Positions 38,699 through 50,300 of a stretch of 64,000 bases of DNA are shown here, in pieces (within the stretch, counting starts at the first letter, position 1; the number at the start of each line of letters is the position of its first letter). A model generated the notes under the pieces. The model worked only from the letters and a program-made list of their open reading frames with translations. It was not told where the DNA came from and did not search any database. A program made the translations under genes and the position numbers. The DNA is from Chthoniobacteraceae bacterium (GTDB lineage Bacteria; Verrucomicrobiota; Verrucomicrobiia; Chthoniobacterales; Chthoniobacteraceae), in assembly GCA_031409655.1 (NCBI GenBank), contig JANNXQ010000187.1, positions 32,001 to 96,000 of the forward strand, in the 5' to 3' direction.

Positions 38699-40088
38699 CT
38701 ACCAGCGATAGGTCACCCGCGCGCGGAACATGCGGGGCTCGGCGGGGTGGAGATGCACGTCGTCAAAACCCTGGTCGCGCTCCCCGCGGAGGCGGCTGGT
38801 GTAGAAGTACTCGATGTCGTTGTCCTCCCGATCGAGCAAGTTCAGGCACTCAATGGCGGCCTCCCAGTTGCTCGTCCGGTAGCAGACGTTCGCGTTCACG
38901 GTGAAGGTCTGGCGACCTTCCACGGAGTTATCCTCGATCAGCGGGCGTTTGCCAAAGGCGCGCACCCGCGTGCCAGCAAACCAGCCGGGCTGCTGTCCTT
39001 GCGCACCGAGGACAAAGCCGTCGCTGAGCATCCACGGGACGCTGTCCGGGATGCGATCGAGGTCGCCGCTGTCGCGGAAACGGGCGTGGGTGATCGCGAC
39101 TTCGGCGTCCACCGTGAGCCAGTCGGTCGGCTCCCAATAGAGCGCGGCTTCGAGGCCGTAGCGGCGGGAGCCGGAGCCGGGTTCATTGGTGCCGGCATCG
39201 CCGACATAGACGAGCTCGCTATCGCTCTCGAGATACCACGCGGCGAGCGTCGCGGTGACTTTCGGGATGAGCTGCGTGCGCAGGCCAAACTCGGCGCCGA
39301 GCGTGCGCACCAGCGGATCGACCGGCGGTACTGGGTCGCCGCTTCCGGGGTCGATCGTGGTGTTCACGCCGCGCGCGTCGTTGCTGTGAAAACCGGTGCC
39401 GAAGTTCAGATAGAACTCCGTCTTCGCCCACGGCCCATCATAGTAAGTGTACTCACCGGCAAAGGTGAGTCGCGGCGCGCGTTTCGTCCCACCTTTGGTC
39501 ACGTCATCCGCGCCGAGCGTGATGGTGTCGCCGATCACGCCGCGGAAGTAATTGTGCTCTCCAAACTCAAACGTCGCGAACCCTCGCGGGAGCACATCGT
39601 GCAGCTTGAAGTCCGCACTGCCGGCGCTGGAGAGATCGCCATTCCGCGCGGTGTAGGGGCCCTTGTAGTAATCGACGCGCTCGACGAGTTCGGGGACAAG
39701 AATGTTCAGATCCGCATAACCCTGCCCATGCGCGTGGGTCCGCATATTCACCGGCATCCCGTCGATCGAGATCGCGAAGTCCGTCCCGTGATAGATTGAA
39801 ACCGCGCAGGAAATACTGGTTCGCCTTACCCCCGCCGGCGTGCTGCGTGACCACCATGCCCGGCACCGCCACGAGCACTTCGCCGCGGCGGAGCAGCGGA
39901 CGCGCGCGCAGTTCCTCGCCACTGGCCGCACCTTGCGTAGCAGTGGGGGCGACGCCGAGCACATCGGTGCGCTTGCCGACGATGACGGTGTCTTCGAGTT
40001 GCGCGGCGGAGGGATCGTGGGCGAGGGCCGTGGACGCGAGAGCGCCCGAGGTGAAGAGCGCCAGGTGGCGCAGGGAGGGTTTTTTCAT
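38699..40088 (-). pseudogene. TonB-dependent receptor pseudogene (frameshift plus internal deletion)
   Basis: Plug motif GKANQYFLRGFNL|(D)HGTDF is split by a frameshift at ~39793. The barrel is shortened by the fusion YYDGPW|AKTEFYLN at ~39430. C-terminus HPAEPR..YRW. Confidence 0.85.
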
Positions 40089-40147
40089 GGGTAGTTTGGA
40101 TTCGGAGAAATTTCATCCCGCGCGCGGTTCCGCGGGAATGGCCGCAC

Positions 40148-40398: not shown

Positions 40399-40701
40399 TT
40401 ACTTGGCGATCTTGTACTTCGTCGCGTTGATCGCCGCGGCGATCTTTTCTTCGGTCGTCTTGGCCGGATCATAAGCGACGACCGCCGTGCCTTTCTCGGC
40501 ACTGGCTTCGATGCTCTTTACGCCTTCGACTTTCGTCGTGGCACCTTTCAGCTCCGCTTCGCAAGAGGTGCAGGTCATGCCCGTCACTTTGAAAGTGGCG
40601 GACTTCGTGGCGGCGGCTTTGTCCTCAGCCTGGACGCCGGAGACGGTGAGGCTCAGGAGAGCGGTGAGGGCGAGGGCGAGTTTCGGGAATGGGATTTTCA
40701 T
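40399..40701 (-). CDS. Exported heavy-metal-associated (HMA; MerP/CopZ-like) protein
   Basis: Signal peptide plus GMTCTSC. Confidence 0.9.
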   Translation of the reverse strand: MKIPFPKLALALTALLSLTVSGVQAEDKAAATKSATFKVTGMTCTSCEAELKGATTKVEGVKSIEASAEKGTAVVAYDPAKTTEEKIAAAINATKYKIAK

Positions 40702-40742
40702 AGGCCTGGAAGTTCCCGAGCCCATCGGGAAACGCAAGTGAT

Positions 40743-40994
40743 CTATCGAGCGGCAGGCCAGTAGAGCGCCGGCTGACGCTGGAATTCCCGGCAGCAATTC
40801 TCGCTGCAAAAGTAGTGCGTGCGTCCGCCGTAGTCGGCGTGCGGCGTGCGCGGCGAGGCATCGACGATGAGGCAATCGAAGTCGCGGCGATGACGACAGA
40901 CCGGGCAATGCTGCTCGCGTGCTCCCGCCGGCGGGGCCGGCGGGAGCGAAGTACAACCGGCGCAGAGCACGGCGATGAGGAGGAGGGCGCGCAT
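40743..40994 (-). CDS. YHS/TRASH-domain lipoprotein
   Basis: Lipobox CAGC; CPVC...YGGRTHYFCSENC..EF...P..Y. Confidence 0.85.
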   Translation of the reverse strand: MRALLLIAVLCAGCTSLPPAPPAGAREQHCPVCRHRRDFDCLIVDASPRTPHADYGGRTHYFCSENCCREFQRQPALYWPAAR

Positions 40995-40996
40995 GG

Positions 40997-42034
40997 CTAG
41001 AAGCTAATGTTCAGGCTGCTGGTGAGGCGGAAGTCCGTCTCGACTTGATCGCCATTCAACTCCTGCAGCACGGGGAACTGCACGCCGACACTCCACGCGG
41101 CGTGTTCGCTGAAACGCACGCGCAGGCCGGGCGAGAGGAAGAGCACGGTGCCGCCGGTGCTCTCCTCGCGCTCTTCGGAGACTTTGCTTTTCTGCACGGA
41201 GCGCACCGTCGCTTCGCCTTGCAGACTGACTTGCGGGAAGCTCTGCGCGTTGCCGATGAAGCGCCAGCCGAGGGCCATGCCGGCATCGAAACGATTGCCG
41301 AGCCGGTAGTCGTGCTTCTCGCCGCGCACGATGTATTGCGCACTCACATCCACGGCCACGCTCGGCGTGAGCGACTGGGTGTAAGCCGCGCCGAACATCC
41401 CATCCCACGCGCCGCTGCCAGCCGTCGAGGCGGGCTCAACGCGCTCGCCGCCACTGGTGAAGACACGATCGTCACCGACGGGAAATTTCACGCCGCCGAA
41501 GAGCGCGACCTGGCCGAGCGGGCCGCGATAGACACGATACTTCGCGGTGAGCCAGAGGTCCGTCCAGCCATCGGGGTCGAAGGTGTCGAACTGGGGCGCC
41601 TCGGCGGTTTCGGCGGCTTCGTCCGCAGCGGCGTGCTCTGCTTCCGCGTCCTCGTGGGTGTGTGGAGCGGATTCATCCTGCGCTTCTTCTTCTCCTTCTT
41701 CATGCCCGTGCGCGATCTCGCGCGTGCCGTCGGCGGCGTAGTAGCCAAAGGCGAGGCTGAGTTGGAAATTCTCCGTGATCCCGAAGCCGATGCTCAGGGT
41801 GGTGAGGAAGGAGCGGTCGATGAGATCGAAGTGGTCCAGACCGACGAGCGTGTCGGTGCTGGGCGAATCGAATTCGGTCCAGTCGAACTTGAGCGTCGAG
41901 GACCACTGGCGTGCTTTCAGCGTCTCCGCGCTCTCGGTATTCGAGCCGCTGCCGGAGGTGCCGGGGCCGTGGTCAGCGAACGCGATGGTGGTGGCGCAGG
42001 CGGTGAGTAATGCGGAGAGGGTTAGTTTGGTCAT
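40997..42034 (-). CDS. Outer-membrane beta-barrel transporter (MetA-pathway-like) with His/Glu-rich loop
   Basis: Signal peptide; G.KFPVG, GSGAWD, LFLSPGLR; terminal Phe; insert HGHEEGEEE...HTHEDAEAEH. Confidence 0.8.
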   Translation of the reverse strand: MTKLTLSALLTACATTIAFADHGPGTSGSGSNTESAETLKARQWSSTLKFDWTEFDSPSTDTLVGLDHFDLIDRSFLTTLSIGFGITENFQLSLAFGYYAADGTREIAHGHEEGEEEAQDESAPHTHEDAEAEHAAADEAAETAEAPQFDTFDPDGWTDLWLTAKYRVYRGPLGQVALFGGVKFPVGDDRVFTSGGERVEPASTAGSGAWDGMFGAAYTQSLTPSVAVDVSAQYIVRGEKHDYRLGNRFDAGMALGWRFIGNAQSFPQVSLQGEATVRSVQKSKVSEEREESTGGTVLFLSPGLRVRFSEHAAWSVGVQFPVLQELNGDQVETDFRLTSSLNISF

Positions 42035-42056
42035 GGGTCGTGGGTGGGGTTGGTGG

Positions 42057-43157
42057 TTATGGCAAGGCTGCGGTGAATTGAAGGATCTCCCGGCTGCCAT
42101 CGGTGAAGCGCACGAGGAGCGTCACCGTGCCATCGGCAGCGAGGGCGCGGGCGGTGCCGCCGGGATGTGGCGCGGAAGTGGGCAGGGCGATGGTGACTGG
42201 CGTCTTCAGCGCCTGGTCGCTGAGGAAGGGCTGGCCTTCCATGATCAACATCGTGAACACCGGTACGCCTCCGGCGAAGCTCACCCGCCAGACGCCATGG
42301 CCCGAAATGCGGCCAGTGGTGGCTCCTGCGGAAAGGAGGAAGCCGTCGCCGCTGGGGAAAAACCAATTCAGTCGGGTGAAGCGGAAGCCCACCGGGCCGG
42401 GCGCAGTCAGGCCCTCGCGCCACGCGATGCCGAGCGCGGTGCCGCCGCCGGTCGGCACATATTGCGCGAGCAGCGCGACATCGGTGGCCGCGGTGACGCC
42501 GCCCGCACCAGCCACGAGCGTCGCGAGAAAACTCACGAGGCCGGTGCTCGAGACGGCGGGGTCGCCGAAACTCCGGAGCTTCGATTCCACGAGGTCGGGC
42601 GCGGCGCTTCCGGTCCGCGCGAGCACGGTCGTTTCGCCATCGGCGCGCAGGAGGATGGCGCTGTTGCTTGCGGCGCCGATGCCGGGGCCGGCGAAGGATT
42701 CGAGCGTGAGCGTGAGGCGATTGCTCACGAAAGCCCCCGACGGCACGCCCGCGGCGAGAAAGTCTGCAGGCACGCCCTCGCCGCGCCAGCCAGGTTGCGT
42801 GCTGCGGTTCTCAGTGGTGATGCCGGGCGCGAGCACTTCATTGCTCGGCGCATCGGGGAGTAACCACGCACTGCTCCCCGGCGCGCCCAGTGGAGCGAAG
42901 CGCGGATCGTCCGGCACGGTGGTGCGCGTCTGTTCATTCGCGTGCAGGATGACGCGCTCGACGCTCCCCGAAATCGAGCCGGCGATTTCCACCAGCGCAT
43001 CGTTTTGCCGAATCCCGACCAGCCACGGATTGGTGCCAGTGCCGACATGCGCGGCGACGAAGTTGATCGAGAGCTCGATCGCGCCCGCGGAAAGAACGGT
43101 CTGCGCCGACGCGGCGAGCGGCAGCGCGAGCAGTAGGAGGAGCAGGATTCTGCGCAT
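42057..43157 (-). CDS. Secreted protein: TIGR03769-like N-domain fused to a partial repeat domain
   Basis: Signal peptide; VPDDPRFAPLGAPGSSAWLLP...LTLTLESFAGPG; then VLARTGSAAP / AWREGLTAPG repeats. Confidence 0.6.
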   Translation of the reverse strand: MRRILLLLLLALPLAASAQTVLSAGAIELSINFVAAHVGTGTNPWLVGIRQNDALVEIAGSISGSVERVILHANEQTRTTVPDDPRFAPLGAPGSSAWLLPDAPSNEVLAPGITTENRSTQPGWRGEGVPADFLAAGVPSGAFVSNRLTLTLESFAGPGIGAASNSAILLRADGETTVLARTGSAAPDLVESKLRSFGDPAVSSTGLVSFLATLVAGAGGVTAATDVALLAQYVPTGGGTALGIAWREGLTAPGPVGFRFTRLNWFFPSGDGFLLSAGATTGRISGHGVWRVSFAGGVPVFTMLIMEGQPFLSDQALKTPVTIALPTSAPHPGGTARALAADGTVTLLVRFTDGSREILQFTAALP

Positions 43158-43270: not shown

Positions 43271-44035
43271 TCATTTTTCCGAGACCTCCGACGAAGTACG
43301 CCGACGGCGGAGTGCGAGCGTCCCGAGCCCGGCGAGGAGCATGGCCGCCGTGCCCAGCTCCGGCACCGAGGTGAAGGTGGCGCGATAGCCCTGGCGATCC
43401 GGGTCGGTGGCCGCCGCATTGCTGCCGAGCGCGATGGAATATTGCCCGGCGGGCAGCGTGTAGGTCGCTTCCGCGGAGGTCGCCAAGGAGTTACTCACAC
43501 AGCCGACGTAGGTGAGGTCTTCGGCCCACACGACGGCACCGTCATTGTTCCAGGTGTGATGGTCATTTGCGGTGGCCGGGACGTAACCGAGCGCGGTCGC
43601 CACGTCGGCTGGCATCAGGTCATTGTCCCACCCGCTCCAGATGGTGAAGGAGGGATAGAACGACTCCGTATCCGCGAGATGCAGCGGGTCACCGGAGATG
43701 GGCTGGGAAACATTCGCGTCGCGCTCGAGGCGCAGCGTGAAGGTGGTGGCCGAGGTGAGCGTGAGCGCCACCCAATCCGAGGTGTGCGTCCAGCCCACCG
43801 GATCGTCGCCGACTCCGAAGAGGCTCTGGTCTTCCCAGCTCCACGCGCCAACATGGCGCGAGGCGCTGGCGCTGTCGGTCTCGCCCAGCAAGACCGTCCA
43901 CCGATAGCCGATGCCGCCCACGATGGGGGCGAGTGAGTCACGCGGAGTGACGGTGCCGGCGCGGAGCCCCGTGTTGGTGCTCAGCGCGGCGAGAACTGCG
44001 GTGAGGATGAGGTGGTTTGGTTTTGTTGTTTGCAT
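43271..44035 (-). CDS. CorA/MopE-like putative copper-binding surface protein with PEP-CTERM-like anchor
   Basis: VGAWSW, GWTHTSDWVALTL, YPSFTIWSGWD, DHHTWN; C-terminus VPELG + TM helix + RRRR. Confidence 0.7.
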   Translation of the reverse strand: MQTTKPNHLILTAVLAALSTNTGLRAGTVTPRDSLAPIVGGIGYRWTVLLGETDSASASRHVGAWSWEDQSLFGVGDDPVGWTHTSDWVALTLTSATTFTLRLERDANVSQPISGDPLHLADTESFYPSFTIWSGWDNDLMPADVATALGYVPATANDHHTWNNDGAVVWAEDLTYVGCVSNSLATSAEATYTLPAGQYSIALGSNAAATDPDRQGYRATFTSVPELGTAAMLLAGLGTLALRRRRTSSEVSEK

Positions 44036-44094
44036 GGTGTGTTTTGGGTTTTGGTTAGCGGGGGATTTGGTCGGAGAAATTTGCGGGCGGGCGC

Positions 44095-46680
44095 TCACCA
44101 GGTGCGGCGCAACCGGTAGAAACGCGTGGGGATGGCGGTCATTGGGTCGAGGCATTGCAGCCAGCCGGCGACCTTTGCCCGCGCGGTGGTCACGGGCGTC
44201 CATGGGCCAGCGGGCGATGGCGCGGATTCGAGGGCCCAGCCCGCGGGCGCGGCGGGCCATTGCAGTTGCGCATCGCTGCCGACGCGCGCGATGCCGAGCG
44301 CGGGCAGCGGCTCGTCGCGATCACGCACGCTGTTGCCATCGCGATCGGTAGAAAGGTGCCGGCCTTCGCCTGGCGGTGCGCCGAGGAAGGTGAGCGCATC
44401 GCCCGGGCCCAGCAGCGCGAGGAGTTGCGCGCGGGTGAGCACTGGCTCGCTCGCGGTGTCGGGCTCGTAGCGCTGCGTGCTGCGATGGTAGAAATACGCG
44501 CGCGTTTTTCCCCCGACCACGCCGCGCGCGACGAGCTCGCTGGCCTGCGCCGCAGCCTGCGCTTCCATCTGCGCAAGATCGGTTGCGAAGGCCGCACTGG
44601 TGGCGCTGGTCACGGTGAAGCCGTCGCCCACGCTTGGCTTCGTCTCCGTGGGGAAGCAGAGCACGAAGGCCGTGACATCGGCGAAATCGTTTGGCGATTC
44701 CGAGCCGAGCTCGTCGAGCGCGTAGGGATGCACCGTGGGCAGCGCGTGGCCGCTGCCATCGTGATCGAGCCCAAAGCCGCTCAAGGATTGCTGCCCGGCG
44801 ATCGGTTTGAAAAAGAGGCGCTGGTAGCTGGTGCGCAGCGTCGGGTTCTTGAGTGGCTGCACTGCGCCGACTTCCTGCGGCAGATCGATGTTGTTATTCG
44901 TCCCGCGCGGAATCGTGTGGCAGAAGCTGCAATGATTGTTGTGCCTCGTGAAGAGGTCCGCGCCGCGCACCGCATCGCCGCCGGCGAGTGTGGGCGGCGG
45001 CGTGCCGTCGCGGCGCAGGATCGGATTCGGATGATTGCGCAGCGTGAAGAGATAGGCCGCGAGTGCGTCGATGTCGGGCGTGGCGAGTTCCGCGCCGCCC
45101 ATGAGCTTGTCGAAAGTCGCATTGAAGCTCTGCAAGGTCGCGCGGTCGCCGCGCCAGTGGAACGGCGCGCCGCCGCTCAAGCCGCGCAAAGTCTGCGTGG
45201 TCATCGGGCCTTTCATCGGATGCATCGTGCGCGGCCGCGGCGTGGCATCGTGGACGACGAGATTCGCGCCCATGACGGTTTGCATCTCGCCGCCGGGATC
45301 GCCGAGATCCCACGCGAGCCCGTCGCGATCCGCATCGAGATGGCAGGTCGCGCACGAGCTGAGCCCATTGCCCGAGAGCCGCGCGTCGAAAAGAAACCCG
45401 CGCCCTTCGCGGATCGCCGCAGGCATCGGGTCGTGGCTGGCGAGCGGCACCTCCGCGAGCAGCGTGCCAGCGGCGGTGCCCAGCACGGAGATGGTGCTAC
45501 TGAGCTTATTGAGCACGTAGAGGCGCGGCTGCGTCGGGTGCAGCGCGAGGGCGCGCGGGCCGCGCATCTGGCGTGCGGTCTGGCCGGTCGAGCTTAGCTC
45601 CGTGCGCGCGAGCACCGCGCCCGATGCAGGTTCGATCCGCACGATGCGATCCGAGCCGAAGGCCGCGACCCACGCCGTCGCGCCATCGCTGGAAAAAGTG
45701 AGCGCCGTGGGCTGCGCGAGCGCGGTGCTCTGCGCCGCGGCATTTGGGAGCGTCGCGTAGTCCACGCCCGGATTCAGATCGAAGATCGTCGCCGCACCAT
45801 TGCCCAGCGCGAGCCGGGTGAGCCGATGATCCGCGACATGCCCGCGCAGCACTGGCTCGAAGCGCACGAGATTGCGCGCCTCGGTATTCGCCACCCACAC
45901 GTCGCCGCTCTGCGGATGCAGCGCGACATCGAGCAGATTCGTGCCCGCGCCGGAAAAGTAGCGCGTGACCTGCCCGGTCGAGGCGTTGATCTCCACCACG
46001 TCGCGATCCAGCAGCGTGTAGCCGATGCCCGGATGATTCGCCGCGACGATGAGGCTCGTCTGCGGCGCGGCGGGAAGATTGGGATTGGTCGGCGCCGGCA
46101 GCGCGGGCGCGACGTTTGCCGGGAGGATCGTCGTCCCATTTCCCGAATGCAGAAACGCCGCATAGACCAACGTGCCCGCCGCATTCACCGCCAGCGCACT
46201 CGGTACCAGACCTTGCACCGCGATGGGCGCGAGCTCCTGCCTGGTCGCCACATCGAAGACCCGCACGAGATTATTCCGCGCGCAGGTCACAAAAGCGCGC
46301 CCCGCCGCGAAGACCACATCCGCCGGCTCATCGCTCGCCTTCAAAGTTGCCACCACCGCCCCCGCGCTGAGCGACACGATACTCACGCTGTCGCTCAGTT
46401 CATTGACCACCCACACCTCGTCATTCGTCCGCGCTCGCACCGCCACCGGCTCCAGCCCCACCGGAATCTCCGCGAGCAAGACCGGCTCCACATTCACCGC
46501 ATCCCCCACCGCAAAGACCGAGAGCCGCGCCTCCGCCGAGTGCACCGCGAGCAGCCGCGCGCCATCCGGTGTGAGCGCGATGCCGTGGGTGTGCCGGGCC
46601 TCGGCGTGGGTGAAAATCTGCCCGCAGGCGAGCATTTGCCCCACGAAGAACGTGGCGAGGATGTGAAAAAATTTGGGCAA
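44095..46680 (-). CDS. YVTN-type beta-propeller fused to a di-haem cytochrome c (peroxidase/MauG-like) domain
   Basis: IPVGLEPVAV propeller blades; two CxxCH motifs (CATCH, CSFCH); PFHWRG; C-terminal RFYRL motif. Confidence 0.85.
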   Translation of the reverse strand: MPKFFHILATFFVGQMLACGQIFTHAEARHTHGIALTPDGARLLAVHSAEARLSVFAVGDAVNVEPVLLAEIPVGLEPVAVRARTNDEVWVVNELSDSVSIVSLSAGAVVATLKASDEPADVVFAAGRAFVTCARNNLVRVFDVATRQELAPIAVQGLVPSALAVNAAGTLVYAAFLHSGNGTTILPANVAPALPAPTNPNLPAAPQTSLIVAANHPGIGYTLLDRDVVEINASTGQVTRYFSGAGTNLLDVALHPQSGDVWVANTEARNLVRFEPVLRGHVADHRLTRLALGNGAATIFDLNPGVDYATLPNAAAQSTALAQPTALTFSSDGATAWVAAFGSDRIVRIEPASGAVLARTELSSTGQTARQMRGPRALALHPTQPRLYVLNKLSSTISVLGTAAGTLLAEVPLASHDPMPAAIREGRGFLFDARLSGNGLSSCATCHLDADRDGLAWDLGDPGGEMQTVMGANLVVHDATPRPRTMHPMKGPMTTQTLRGLSGGAPFHWRGDRATLQSFNATFDKLMGGAELATPDIDALAAYLFTLRNHPNPILRRDGTPPPTLAGGDAVRGADLFTRHNNHCSFCHTIPRGTNNNIDLPQEVGAVQPLKNPTLRTSYQRLFFKPIAGQQSLSGFGLDHDGSGHALPTVHPYALDELGSESPNDFADVTAFVLCFPTETKPSVGDGFTVTSATSAAFATDLAQMEAQAAAQASELVARGVVGGKTRAYFYHRSTQRYEPDTASEPVLTRAQLLALLGPGDALTFLGAPPGEGRHLSTDRDGNSVRDRDEPLPALGIARVGSDAQLQWPAAPAGWALESAPSPAGPWTPVTTARAKVAGWLQCLDPMTAIPTRFYRLRRTW

Positions 46681-46931: not shown

Positions 46932-47318
46932 CTAGGCGAGCGGCGGGGGCGTGGGCGGCGCGTCCAGACGCCGTCCTTCTTCCGCCCGGAATCCACTCCA
47001 AGCGATTTCGCCGCTCTCCAGCGGCTGGGCCAGTTCAAAGCGCACCAGCGTCGCGCTCTTGAATTCCATGAGCTTTTTCACCATCGGAGCCGCGGGCGCT
47101 TCCTTCTTCTCCTCTTGCTGCCCGCTGGTGATCGCCGAACACAAGTGACAAGGATGCGCGCCGTCGAAAGTGGTCCGCACGGCTTGCTCCACCCCCACCG
47201 ACTGCGTCCGGGTCACGAGCATTCCCGTCCACGCCGTCATCTGCAAAACCGCCCAGTGAGCGCCGCTCAAATAGAGCGCGCAAACGGCGGTCAGGAGAGT
47301 TCGGCAGGCGCGTTGCAC
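46932..47318 (-). CDS. CxxC/polyproline-tail protein (DUF2946-like leader)
   Basis: N-terminal TM segment (HWAVLQMTAWTGM), FDGAHPCHLC, C-terminal RLDAPPTPPPLA. GTG start is inferred. Confidence 0.7.
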   Translation of the reverse strand: MQRACRTLLTAVCALYLSGAHWAVLQMTAWTGMLVTRTQSVGVEQAVRTTFDGAHPCHLCSAITSGQQEEKKEAPAAPMVKKLMEFKSATLVRFELAQPLESGEIAWSGFRAEEGRRLDAPPTPPPLA

Positions 47319-47391
47319 GCGAGAGCGGTCAGCGATAACGGCACCCGCGTCAACCTTTCGTTCCCGCGCGACCGGGGCCCGCGTGGGCAAC

Positions 47392-50300
47392 TCACGGTGA
47401 TGTGATCCGCAAGCGCACGTAGCGCTGCGCATTCGGACCAGCGGGTAACGTGGCCTTCATTTCCTCCACCCCACCGGCGGTTCCGATGGGACTCTGGCTG
47501 ACCCCGGCCACGCTCCAACTTCCGGCTGCAAGCGTGTCGCTCCATTCCACGATGAAGGTGGACGACGCCACGGCGGCGACGTTGCGGAAGTAAGTAAACT
47601 CGAGCGATGCGCCGTTCTTCACGCAGTTGATCGGGAAGACGCCGGGGACATTCGGTTCACCGTGCAGCGCGAATTCGGCGAAGTTCGTCAGGGCGTCGCG
47701 GTCCGGGTTGGCATTCGGTCCGGCGATGGTCGCGTTGCTCCAGTTCGCGCCGAAGTTCAGCGCCTGCCATTGCTGCCACGCGCTCGCGGCGGTCCACACG
47801 AGATTCACGGCAGTGCCGGTGTGCTGAAGCGAAAACGCGCCCCAGCCACTCGCGCTCCGCCCGGTGCTGTCGGCGGTGAGGGTGCCGAGCGTGAAGGTGC
47901 CGGCAATGCTCGGAGCGATGACTGCGGGCCAGGTGCGGTTCGCGCTCCAGAAGGCGTCGGTGAAATCCACCGTGCTGCCGGGACGGTTGAGAAAGAGGTC
48001 GAGGCGCGCGCCATTCGTCATATTCACGGTCGCGGCGCTCACTTGATCGAAGTCGTTCGCCGCGGCGCTGTTGGTCACGAGTTCCCACTGGAGATGGCTC
48101 GCGCTGCCGTAGCTCACGCTCGAGGCGAAGACCTGCGTCCCCGCGGTGGCGTTGCCGGGGGCGTGATTGCCGTTGATCACCGCGAGGCAGGAGAGCGTGC
48201 CCGCGCCGCCAAAGGTCGTGCCGAGATTTGCGGCCACGCTCGATGCGCCGGTGACGCTGCCATTCACGAGCAGCGTGCCGGCAGTGACGTTGATGCTGCC
48301 GGTGTGCGTCACGGGGCCATTGAGCGACCACGTGCCGGACTCCGATTTGGCGATGCTCACGAGCGCGGTGCCCGGTGCATAATCGCTGATCGACCCGGTG
48401 ACGACTCCGATGCCCGCGCCGCGCAGGCGCAGATTTCGCGAAGTCGTGATGGGCGCGATGTCCCCGGAGATGGTGAGCGCGCCGGCGGCGACGACGATCC
48501 CCGTGTCCCCACCACCGCCGGTGAGGCTGATGTTGCCAGCGATGCTGTTGTCGCCGGCTTCGTTGATGATCGCGCCGGCGCTGTTGTTACTCGTCTGGAA
48601 GGTGAACTCGGGCGGTAGCTCGATATCCGCGCTGCTGCCGTCGAGGCGGAGCTGCGGGTTGCCGTTGGTGCCGTTGTTCACCTTGATGGTCTTCGCGCCT
48701 TCGCCGAGCGCGGCGGCGCTGGTGATGCGCAGCGCGCCGGAGACCACGTTCACGATTCCCGCGAAGCTGTTGTTGCCGGTGAAGACGACGGTGCCGGCGC
48801 TGATCGGGCAGTCGATCATCACGCCGCCGCTGCCGCCGATGTTATTGGCGACGGTGAGGGTGCCGGTACGGTCGAAGCGCAGCGTGCCATCCACGGTCAC
48901 GTCGCCCGCGCCGAGCGTGCCGGTCGCGCCGTCATTGCCGATTTGCAGCGTGCCGGCGGCGATGGTCGTGTCGCCGGTGTAAGTATTGATGCCGCTAAGG
49001 ATGAGGGTGCTGCTGCTGCTCGTGCGCGTGATGCCGCCGGGTCCGCTGAGGTCGCCGCTGAAGAGGAAGCGCCCGCTATTTGTCGCGGTGAAGGTGGTGT
49101 CCGCGCCGAGCATGATCGGCGTGGTGACGTCGTAAGTGATCGTCGAGTTCGTGGCGGTGAGCGCGACGCTGGGATTGAGCGCGCCGTTGTTCAGGAGCTG
49201 GAGCGCGTTGCCGCCGATGGTCACGTTCGTCGCCGCGGTGCTCGTGCCGCCGAGCGCGAGCGTGTTGATCTGGAAGTTCGCGGCGAGGTTGTTGTTCGCC
49301 GCGACGGTGCTGCCGGTGATGGTCTGGCCGGTGAAAAATTGCAACGTGCTGCCGCGGCTGCTTGCGGGCGGCGTGTTGCCGCTCCAGTTCGTATTCGTGC
49401 TCCACGTCTGCGCGCCGTTGCTCGCATTCGTCCAGGTGTAAGTGGCGGGACTCGCGCTGAGCGTGATCGTGCCCATCGCGCTGAGTCCGCCGAAGTGCCG
49501 CACGGTCATGCCGCCGGCGAGATTTCCGATCTCCGTGGCGCTGAGGTCATCGGAGAAAACCGCGAGTTCATCGAGCTGCCCATCGAACCAGCGCGGCACA
49601 AACGCCGCGGTGATGTCGGTGTGCCCGCCGAAGATCAGCGGCGCGGTCTGGTTCGTCGCGAGCGCGAAGCTGTTGTCGCTGCCCACGAGCACGCCATCCA
49701 GATACACGCTCAGCACGGTGCCGCTGCGCACCACGGCAAAGTGCCGCCACGCACCGGGCGGCACCGTACTCACGGTGAAGTCCACATCGGGACCAGGATA
49801 GTGGTGCAGAGTCAGTTGGTTCGCGCCGCGCGCGAACAGGTAGAACTCCTCCGCGGTGCCGAATCCATCACCCGCGTTCAGGTGGAAAATCATGTCGTCG
49901 CTGCCGGCGTCGCGGCGTTTGAACCAGCCGGCGATCGTCCAGTCCGACGTGTTGAAGTTTAGCTCCGCGGTTGAGATCGTGCGGCTGAGTCGGGCGGCGT
50001 TCGCGCCGCCATTCTCCGCGAGATCGAGCGCGCGTCCGGCTCGACCGAGCGCGGCGGGCACATCGCTCACGAGCGTCGCCGTGCCGGTGCCGATCGCGTC
50101 GAGCGTGCCGCTGCGGCCGTGATCAGACGCGTCCGAGATTTCCGATGCCACGGTCGCGTCCGGCAGCTCGAAGTCATAGGCGACCACCGCGCGCGGATCG
50201 GGCGTGGTGTCCGTGGCGGTGAATTGGAATGCGGGCAAGCCGGAATAGCCGGGCGTCGGCGTGAAACGCGCGGTGTGGCCATCGGGCAGCAGGATCACCG

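Follow-up and report, generated by a model that had tools for sequence, protein, structure and literature searches.

The question raised by this locus is whether a secreted protein in which a propeller is joined to a di-haem domain makes the kynurenine of a CorA/MopE-like copper protein encoded beside it. The locus lies on contig C187 (JANNXQ010000187.1) of the 6.85-Mb assembly of a Chthoniobacteraceae bacterium, in the 64,000-nucleotide stretch of DNA that was analysed (hereafter, the window). Both genes are on the minus strand and are separated by a gap of 59 bp, the gene of an 861-residue protein being located upstream of that of a 254-residue protein with a W-T-H motif. The relatives carrying names are Verrucomicrobia. 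From sequence comparison and by analogy with characterised systems, we consider it probable (roughly 0.6) that the propeller enzyme has replaced the usual partner of this copper protein family and makes the kynurenine, that is, acts as its maturase.

In the small protein, the GWTH motif announced by the original prediction was found at residues 81-84. This motif occurs in 15 six-frame open reading frames (ORFs) of the genome, yet in only 1 of its 46 PEP-CTERM-like ORFs, and its presence here is not due to chance. When scored against the Pfam model Cu_bind_CorA (PF18252), the 254-residue protein reached 19.4 bits, below the 27-bit cut-off, which its multi-domain relatives exceed. Used as a single query, it detected MopE at an E-value of 0.51, with an alignment running across GWTHT. 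With a profile made from 100 homologues (A1), MopE (E 0.003) and CorA were the sole PDB matches, and with a broader profile of 70 sequences (A7), CorA was aligned over 38-124 with an E-value of 5.6e-6. In the latter alignment, W62, H64 and H114 of CorA share columns with W82, H84 and H160 of the small protein; in CorA these residues are the kynurenine and the two copper histidines (PMC3912023; this and the other papers cited by PMC number were covered in part).

The AlphaFold2 model of the 254-residue protein (predicted local distance difference test, pLDDT, 88) gave CorA and MopE as top fold matches both by Foldseek (E 3e-8) and by VIA-align. With the latter, 4bz4 was aligned with a Z score of 12.6 and a root-mean-square deviation (rmsd) of 2.5 over 141 residues and 2vov with a Z score of 11.5 and an rmsd of 4.0 over 166 residues, the next-best match having a Z score of 9.1. 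Since the profile aligns all three ligand positions and the fold is matched as well, the 254-residue PEP-CTERM protein is a homologue of CorA and MopE, as had been proposed from the motif. Its score with the PEP-CTERM models is just under the cut-off, which is passed by a close homologue (P0012).

The conservation of the site residues was followed in two sets of sequences. In 478 close domains, a set biased by the word-seeded searches used to build it, W82 and H84 are kept in 476 and H160 in 470. In the 70-sequence alignment, which comes mostly from an unseeded search and includes distant proteins, W82 and H84 are each kept in 69 sequences and H160 in 62. The original prediction had further singled out a pair of histidines about 75 residues after GWTH. 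The position was right (H159 and H160 are placed 75-76 residues past H84), but the two histidines do not form a pair of ligands: H160 is conserved whereas H159 is kept in just 109 of the 478 domains, and H159 was rejected as a copper ligand.

The family also includes proteins with 2-4 tandem domains, and its distant members are named as Nitrosomonas and Methylococcales. In Prosthecobacter-like genomes, surface proteins of 1100-1600 residues combine 2-4 tandem, intact W-T-H/His domains with immunoglobulin (Ig) domains (L017, L024, L026-L038 and others; P0242-P0361), and their partner enzymes are likewise extended. A possible sister domain carries G-D-S-H in the register of G-W-T-H, with Asp for Trp (L068:1654-5286 and L121:1361-2401). 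Fused to W-T-H domains or lying beside them, it could form a metal site for which no oxidation would be required.

In agreement with the original prediction, the adjacent upstream gene encodes two CxxCH motifs, CATCH at residue 443 and CSFCH at residue 584, both within a domain resembling cytochrome c peroxidase (CCP). Domain scans of the 861-residue protein gave YVTN/lactonase propeller repeats and a CCP_MauG match of 24.9 bits for a cut-off of 25.6. When its structure model (pLDDT 88; predicted template modelling score 0.91) was submitted whole to a fold search, the listed matches were all propellers. The propeller was best matched by hydrazine synthase beta (Z 36.7, rmsd 2.0, 309 residues aligned), with which an archaeal YVTN propeller (Z 35.7) was tied. 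For the haem domain, the best profile match was hydrazine synthase gamma (E 3e-13), followed by 6e1c and CCPs. The C-terminal domain of about 70 residues also ends four other ORFs of the genome.

Two elements of the haem domain deserve attention. W509 was found without exception in the 49 haem domains compared and is kept in 115 of 120 homologues, and the order of the motifs would place it between the two haems. H651-x-Y653 (the H-x-Y motif) is placed 11-13 residues past H640, in a region (640-660) where the model is weak; H651 is kept in 58 of 63 sequences. Five enzyme homologues (P0213, P0218, P0222, P0224, P0240) retain both CxxCH motifs and are devoid of the candidate inter-haem Trp and of H-x-Y; among 46 enzyme genes read from 401 genomes, no member of such a subgroup was found.

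The linkage of the two genes was examined from both sides. On the substrate side, 79 loci were taken from GTDB genomes (the best 80 of 148 relatives). The enzyme is present at 66 of them, and at 61 of 61 where at least 3 kb of upstream DNA is available. Twelve of the misses lie close to the edge of a contig. L068 is a true exception, although the enzyme is encoded on a different contig of its genome. A search of 401 genomes of the phylum gave three substrate genes, each of which adjoins an enzyme gene. On the enzyme side, the full haem-domain matches of 151 genomes of the bacterium's own family split into two score groups. In the upper group, 13 of 14 enzymes adjoin a substrate gene, the last one ending at a contig edge, and H-x-Y is present in 14 of 14; in the lower group, the 14 examined, including a paralogue from this genome, are all without H-x-Y. 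In this family, the neighbourhoods of 12 unlinked enzymes were read and none contained a W-x-H gene.

A second enzyme-side search was made in another family (401 genomes, some of them shared with the earlier set), and 46 of the 53 places listed were read. Enzymes with H-x-Y flanked a W-x-H-family gene in 43 of 43 places, divergent W-G-H and W-R-H forms included; those without H-x-Y did so in none of three, two of which were read over just 1.5 kb on each side. Furthermore, the adjacency has outlived an inversion (L044), a tandem duplication that encloses the W-x-H gene (seven genomes) and an enlargement of both genes to some 1400 residues. The two genes form a conserved cassette, and the genomic co-occurrence of the two families that the original prediction called for is near-total. 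A plasmid search gave no substrate match and two weak enzyme matches.

Several other arrangements were noted during this survey. In seven genomes (L245-L250, L261), a divergent W-G-H substrate lies between two different H-x-Y propeller enzymes, giving enzyme-substrate-enzyme triplets. The lower-group paralogue of this genome (G000 C25:171-3023), an unlinked propeller di-haem protein near a contig edge, is 46% identical to the 861-residue protein. An apparent enzyme-substrate fusion at L015 was rejected: its out-of-frame stretch and intact internal signal peptide indicate a frameshift read-through. No fusion was found among 120 of the 142 longer homologues listed, as judged by their Pfam annotations. 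A complex prediction made with residues 21-790 of the enzyme and 27-224 of the substrate scored 0.08 for a mark of 0.32, and was counted neither way.

The partners of more distant W-x-H proteins were then compared. Of 78 metagenome loci, 34 are distant-member loci of at least 5 kb, several contigs being near-duplicates; 21 carry a long-insert CCP/MauG protein (630-700 residues) alone, 5 carry both types, 2 the propeller enzyme alone and 6 neither. Distant W-x-H proteins (Nitrosomonas, Methylococcales) mostly pair with the long-insert MauG-like enzyme, whose family is presumably also that of SACCP and CorB. Only the first haem motif is common to this family and the 861-residue protein. Among 53 Verrucomicrobial carrier genomes, two of which seem to be a single genome under different handles, substantial long-insert matches occur in seven and none occurs in the present genome; the propeller enzyme is therefore the sole constant di-haem partner in this lineage. 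In 12 of the 53, three of which are 96-99% complete (G081, G402, G496), no long-insert or MbnH-like profile match was obtained at E 1e-8.

Elsewhere, five metagenome loci (L134, L141, L159, L162, L163) have one or two long-insert di-haem genes, next to which 2-4 distinct W-x-H PEP-CTERM genes are arranged in an array. In the present genome, a short MbnH-like di-haem gene (G000 C76:8040-8999) lies beside a 2599-residue ORF with two further CxxCH motifs.

If the propeller protein is the maturase, the following scheme can be proposed. Export signals are seen in both proteins, which would be located outside the cytoplasm, the small one being retained through its PEP-CTERM tail. The reaction with H2O2 or O2 would take place at haem 1. 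W509 and a Tyr653-ligated haem 2 could store oxidising equivalents as in MauG and MbnH; His-Tyr ligation and an inter-haem Trp are described for MauG-type enzymes (PMC11892367). The propeller might, speculatively, dock the substrate. This high-valent di-haem state would then oxidise Trp82 to kynurenine, completing a high-affinity Cu(I) site; upon co-expression with MbnH, kynurenine is formed in MbnP (PMC11951088). By analogy with CorA and MopE, Cu(I) destined for uptake would be bound by Kyn82, His84 and His160 (PMC3423442). In the Verrucomicrobia, the propeller enzyme seems to have taken the place of the long-insert MauG-like enzyme, the partner of the family elsewhere. A more tentative scenario, which may well prove wrong, is that a Tyr haem ligand arose in the H-x-Y clade of hydrazine synthase beta-gamma-like proteins separately from MauG and MbnH, and that this clade turned into dedicated Trp-to-kynurenine maturases, displacing the long-insert enzyme.

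A number of observations weigh against the maturase assignment. First, Y653 is at +13 from H640, whereas the CCP methionine and the long-insert Tyr, which align with each other, are at +14; the methionine at this position is the haem ligand. H651 is as conserved as Y653, and the model is unreliable around both. In addition, H-x-Y is absent in 7 of 120 close homologues (two with Phe, five also without the Trp). In a quick tree, from which 15 duplicate loci were excluded by name, H-x-Y marks a single clade (77 of 95 rows; Shimodaira-Hasegawa-like approximate likelihood ratio test 98) that arose by one change. The contrast between H-x-Y and linkage is then one branch and a single evolutionary event, and because the correlation amounts to one clade it does not constitute repeated evidence.

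The distant members also enter this balance. The outgroup propeller enzymes located by distant W-x-H genes are without H-x-Y and five of seven distant propeller loci also carry the long-insert enzyme, so that the propeller enzyme may have had another job. This pattern may reflect a role takeover with gain of the motif, but also an older, separate function. Two unlinked short MbnH-like di-haem genes of the genome could act in trans. In hydrazine synthase gamma, the closest solved relative, haem 2 is bis-His (PMC12607021). Even for SACCP and CorB, direct proof of kynurenine formation is absent (PMC3912023); the same source reports that a partner-peroxidase knockout of Methylomicrobium alcaliphilum outgrew the wild type and suggests non-enzymatic oxidation.

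Several of these points feed the alternative that survives best, although we regard it as unlikely: the small protein is indeed a copper protein with a kynurenine, and the propeller protein is a redox accessory (Cu(II) reduction, electron relay or peroxide removal) with a bis-His588/His651 haem 2, the kynurenine being formed non-enzymatically or by an unlinked MbnH-like enzyme. The haem-2 ligation of hydrazine synthase gamma, the conservation of H651 and the knockout phenotype would all be accommodated, as would the joint presence of propeller and long-insert enzymes at five distant loci and that of short MbnH-like genes in most carrier genomes. This is countered by the 12 carrier genomes devoid of any long-insert or MbnH-like match, by the retention of the Tyr across divergent linked subclades and by the presence of Trp, as in CCP and MauG, where hydrazine synthase gamma has His144.

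It is rather improbable that the enzyme modifies its partner in another way, yielding a different Trp product, acting on W65 or W67 of a W-S-W motif, or building a site for another metal with H61 as an extra ligand. Of the 478 close domains, 475 retain W65, as many retain W67 and 426 retain H61, and the kynurenine of MbnP sits in a WxW motif (PMC11951088). However, W65 (31/70) and H61 (23/70) vary in distant members while W82, H84 and H160 persist, and the latter three coincide exactly with the CorA site. Finally, that the 861-residue protein performs nitrogen redox chemistry in the manner of hydrazine synthase, or is some unrelated cytochrome that is secreted, its adjacency being inherited synteny without function, is largely disfavoured already and very improbable in spite of its best structural and profile matches and of a Pfam HZS_alpha match in the genome, as this match is on another contig, the NCBIfam hydrazine models score 16-41 bits for cut-offs of 560-1250 (hydrazine synthase beta-gamma, 41.3 of 1250), the haem-1 domain has no third Cys and the adjacency outlasts the rearrangements described above.

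Table 1. Features of the cassette, with positions in the window
Feature	Position	Strand	Remarks
CorA/MopE-like protein, 254 residues, ATG at 44035	43271..44035	-	Signal peptide, beta-sandwich about 37-224, PEP-CTERM-type anchor
W82-T83-H84	43784..43792	-	Aligned with CorA Kyn62/His64 and MopE Kyn130/His132
H160	43556..43558	-	Aligned with CorA His114 (second copper His); adjacent H159 variable
PEP-CTERM-like sorting signal: VPEL variant, hydrophobic helix, RRRR	43271..43366	-	Models just under cut-offs
Secreted 861-residue protein: seven-bladed propeller, di-haem CCP/MauG-superfamily domain, C-terminal domains	44095..46680	-	
Propeller domain, about residues 23-412	45445..46614	-	Structural match to hydrazine synthase beta
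Haem 1 motif CATCH (443-447)	45340..45354	-	
W509 in HWRGD, candidate inter-haem Trp	45154..45156	-	Placed from motif position
Haem 2 motif CSFCH (584-588)	44917..44931	-	
H651-P-Y653, clade-specific motif, region of haem-2 distal ligand	44722..44730	-	Tyr and His both candidates; model pLDDT about 50-65
C-terminal domain of the 861-residue protein, about 70 residues	44098..44304	-	Likely surface-targeting
Small upstream ORF with HPCHLC motif	46932..47432	-	Translation probably starts internally; the cassette's third conserved gene

The HPCHLC ORF was detected in 50 of 79 loci and had no match in Pfam and NCBIfam scans. A scan for promoters and terminators gave nothing exceeding shuffled sequence. 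Downstream of the pair, co-oriented genes (40399-43157, minus strand) encode a choice-of-anchor M/DUF7453 protein, a His-rich MetA-pathway-like barrel (PF13557) and a heavy-metal-associated domain protein, which suggests metal handling. They are not conserved beside the pair (barrel at 2 of 79 loci, the others at 0 of 79; E 1e-4). Further downstream, a TonB-dependent receptor gene (38699-40091, minus strand) is broken: its reading frame shifts near 39790, and compared with the intact relative at L009 it is about 225 residues short. At 3 of 79 loci, a homologue of this receptor is located close to the cassette.

A literature search, with subscription journals mostly and supplements entirely outside its reach, returned no description of a W-x-H/propeller di-haem cassette. 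In a 2025 review, kynurenine formation in MopE and CorA is given as undetermined (PMC11951088). The present cassette makes this question directly testable, as it offers a small single-domain substrate, one candidate enzyme, named residues (W82, H84 and H160; W509, H651 and Y653) and an unlinked paralogue as control. Cultured carriers include Haloferula sp. BvORR071 and Luteolibacter sp. Populi. CorA-type copper capture would be extended past methanotrophs, to Verrucomicrobia and Nitrosomonas, and a reaction is proposed for an uncharacterised hydrazine-synthase-related family. If the more tentative scenario of an independently gained Tyr ligand is true, the propeller enzyme would bring to three the enzyme scaffolds that make kynurenine cofactors in proteins, and its reaction would be the first assigned to the widespread fused hydrazine-synthase-like family. 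Its substrates across Verrucomicrobia would then be copper collectors of the cell surface, both PEP-CTERM and multi-domain ones.

Among known systems, CorA/CorB of Methylomicrobium album BG8 and MopE/SACCP (MCA2590) of Methylococcus capsulatus Bath have the fold and the three site residues in common with the small protein, and there too an adjacent di-haem gene of the CCP/MauG superfamily is proposed to make the kynurenine. The concept of pairing a kynurenine protein with a di-haem enzyme is already published for them (PMC3912023). Unlike CorA and MopE, the protein described here has a PEP-CTERM anchor, replaced in relatives by 2-4 tandem domains with Ig stalks; the hosts are not methanotrophs, and the partner is fused to a propeller and has a compact haem domain.

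MbnH/MbnP resembles the present pair in that co-expressing the di-haem enzyme leads to a copper site with kynurenine in a Trp-rich protein encoded next to it. However, MbnP has another fold and a His/Met site, and MbnH has 388 residues and no propeller; the curated model TIGR04039 gives the 861-residue protein 21.6 bits, far below its cut-off of 362.85. MauG likewise has two CxxCH motifs, with an inter-haem Trp and a Tyr in the haem-2 ligand region for which the 861-residue protein offers candidates, but the methylamine dehydrogenase context is absent here and TIGR03791 is also far from its cut-off (19.7 of 443.85 bits).

Lastly, hydrazine synthase beta/gamma and their fused homologues also consist of a seven-bladed propeller followed by a two-haem CCP-like domain. 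The 861-residue protein differs from hydrazine synthase by having no adjacent alpha-subunit gene and no third Cys, by a candidate inter-haem Trp in place of His144 and by its clade-specific H-x-Y. Fused beta-gamma homologues are prevalent in environmental bacteria and have Trp at the position of His144 of the gamma subunit (PMC12758564); in the part of that paper available, neither a function nor a CorA-like neighbour is given for them. Because these fusions have been reported, the combination of propeller and di-haem domains is itself known, and the original claim of a new architecture of Trp-modifying enzyme stands in a narrower form: what is new is the occurrence of this architecture in the role proposed here, that of kynurenine partner of a CorA-like protein.

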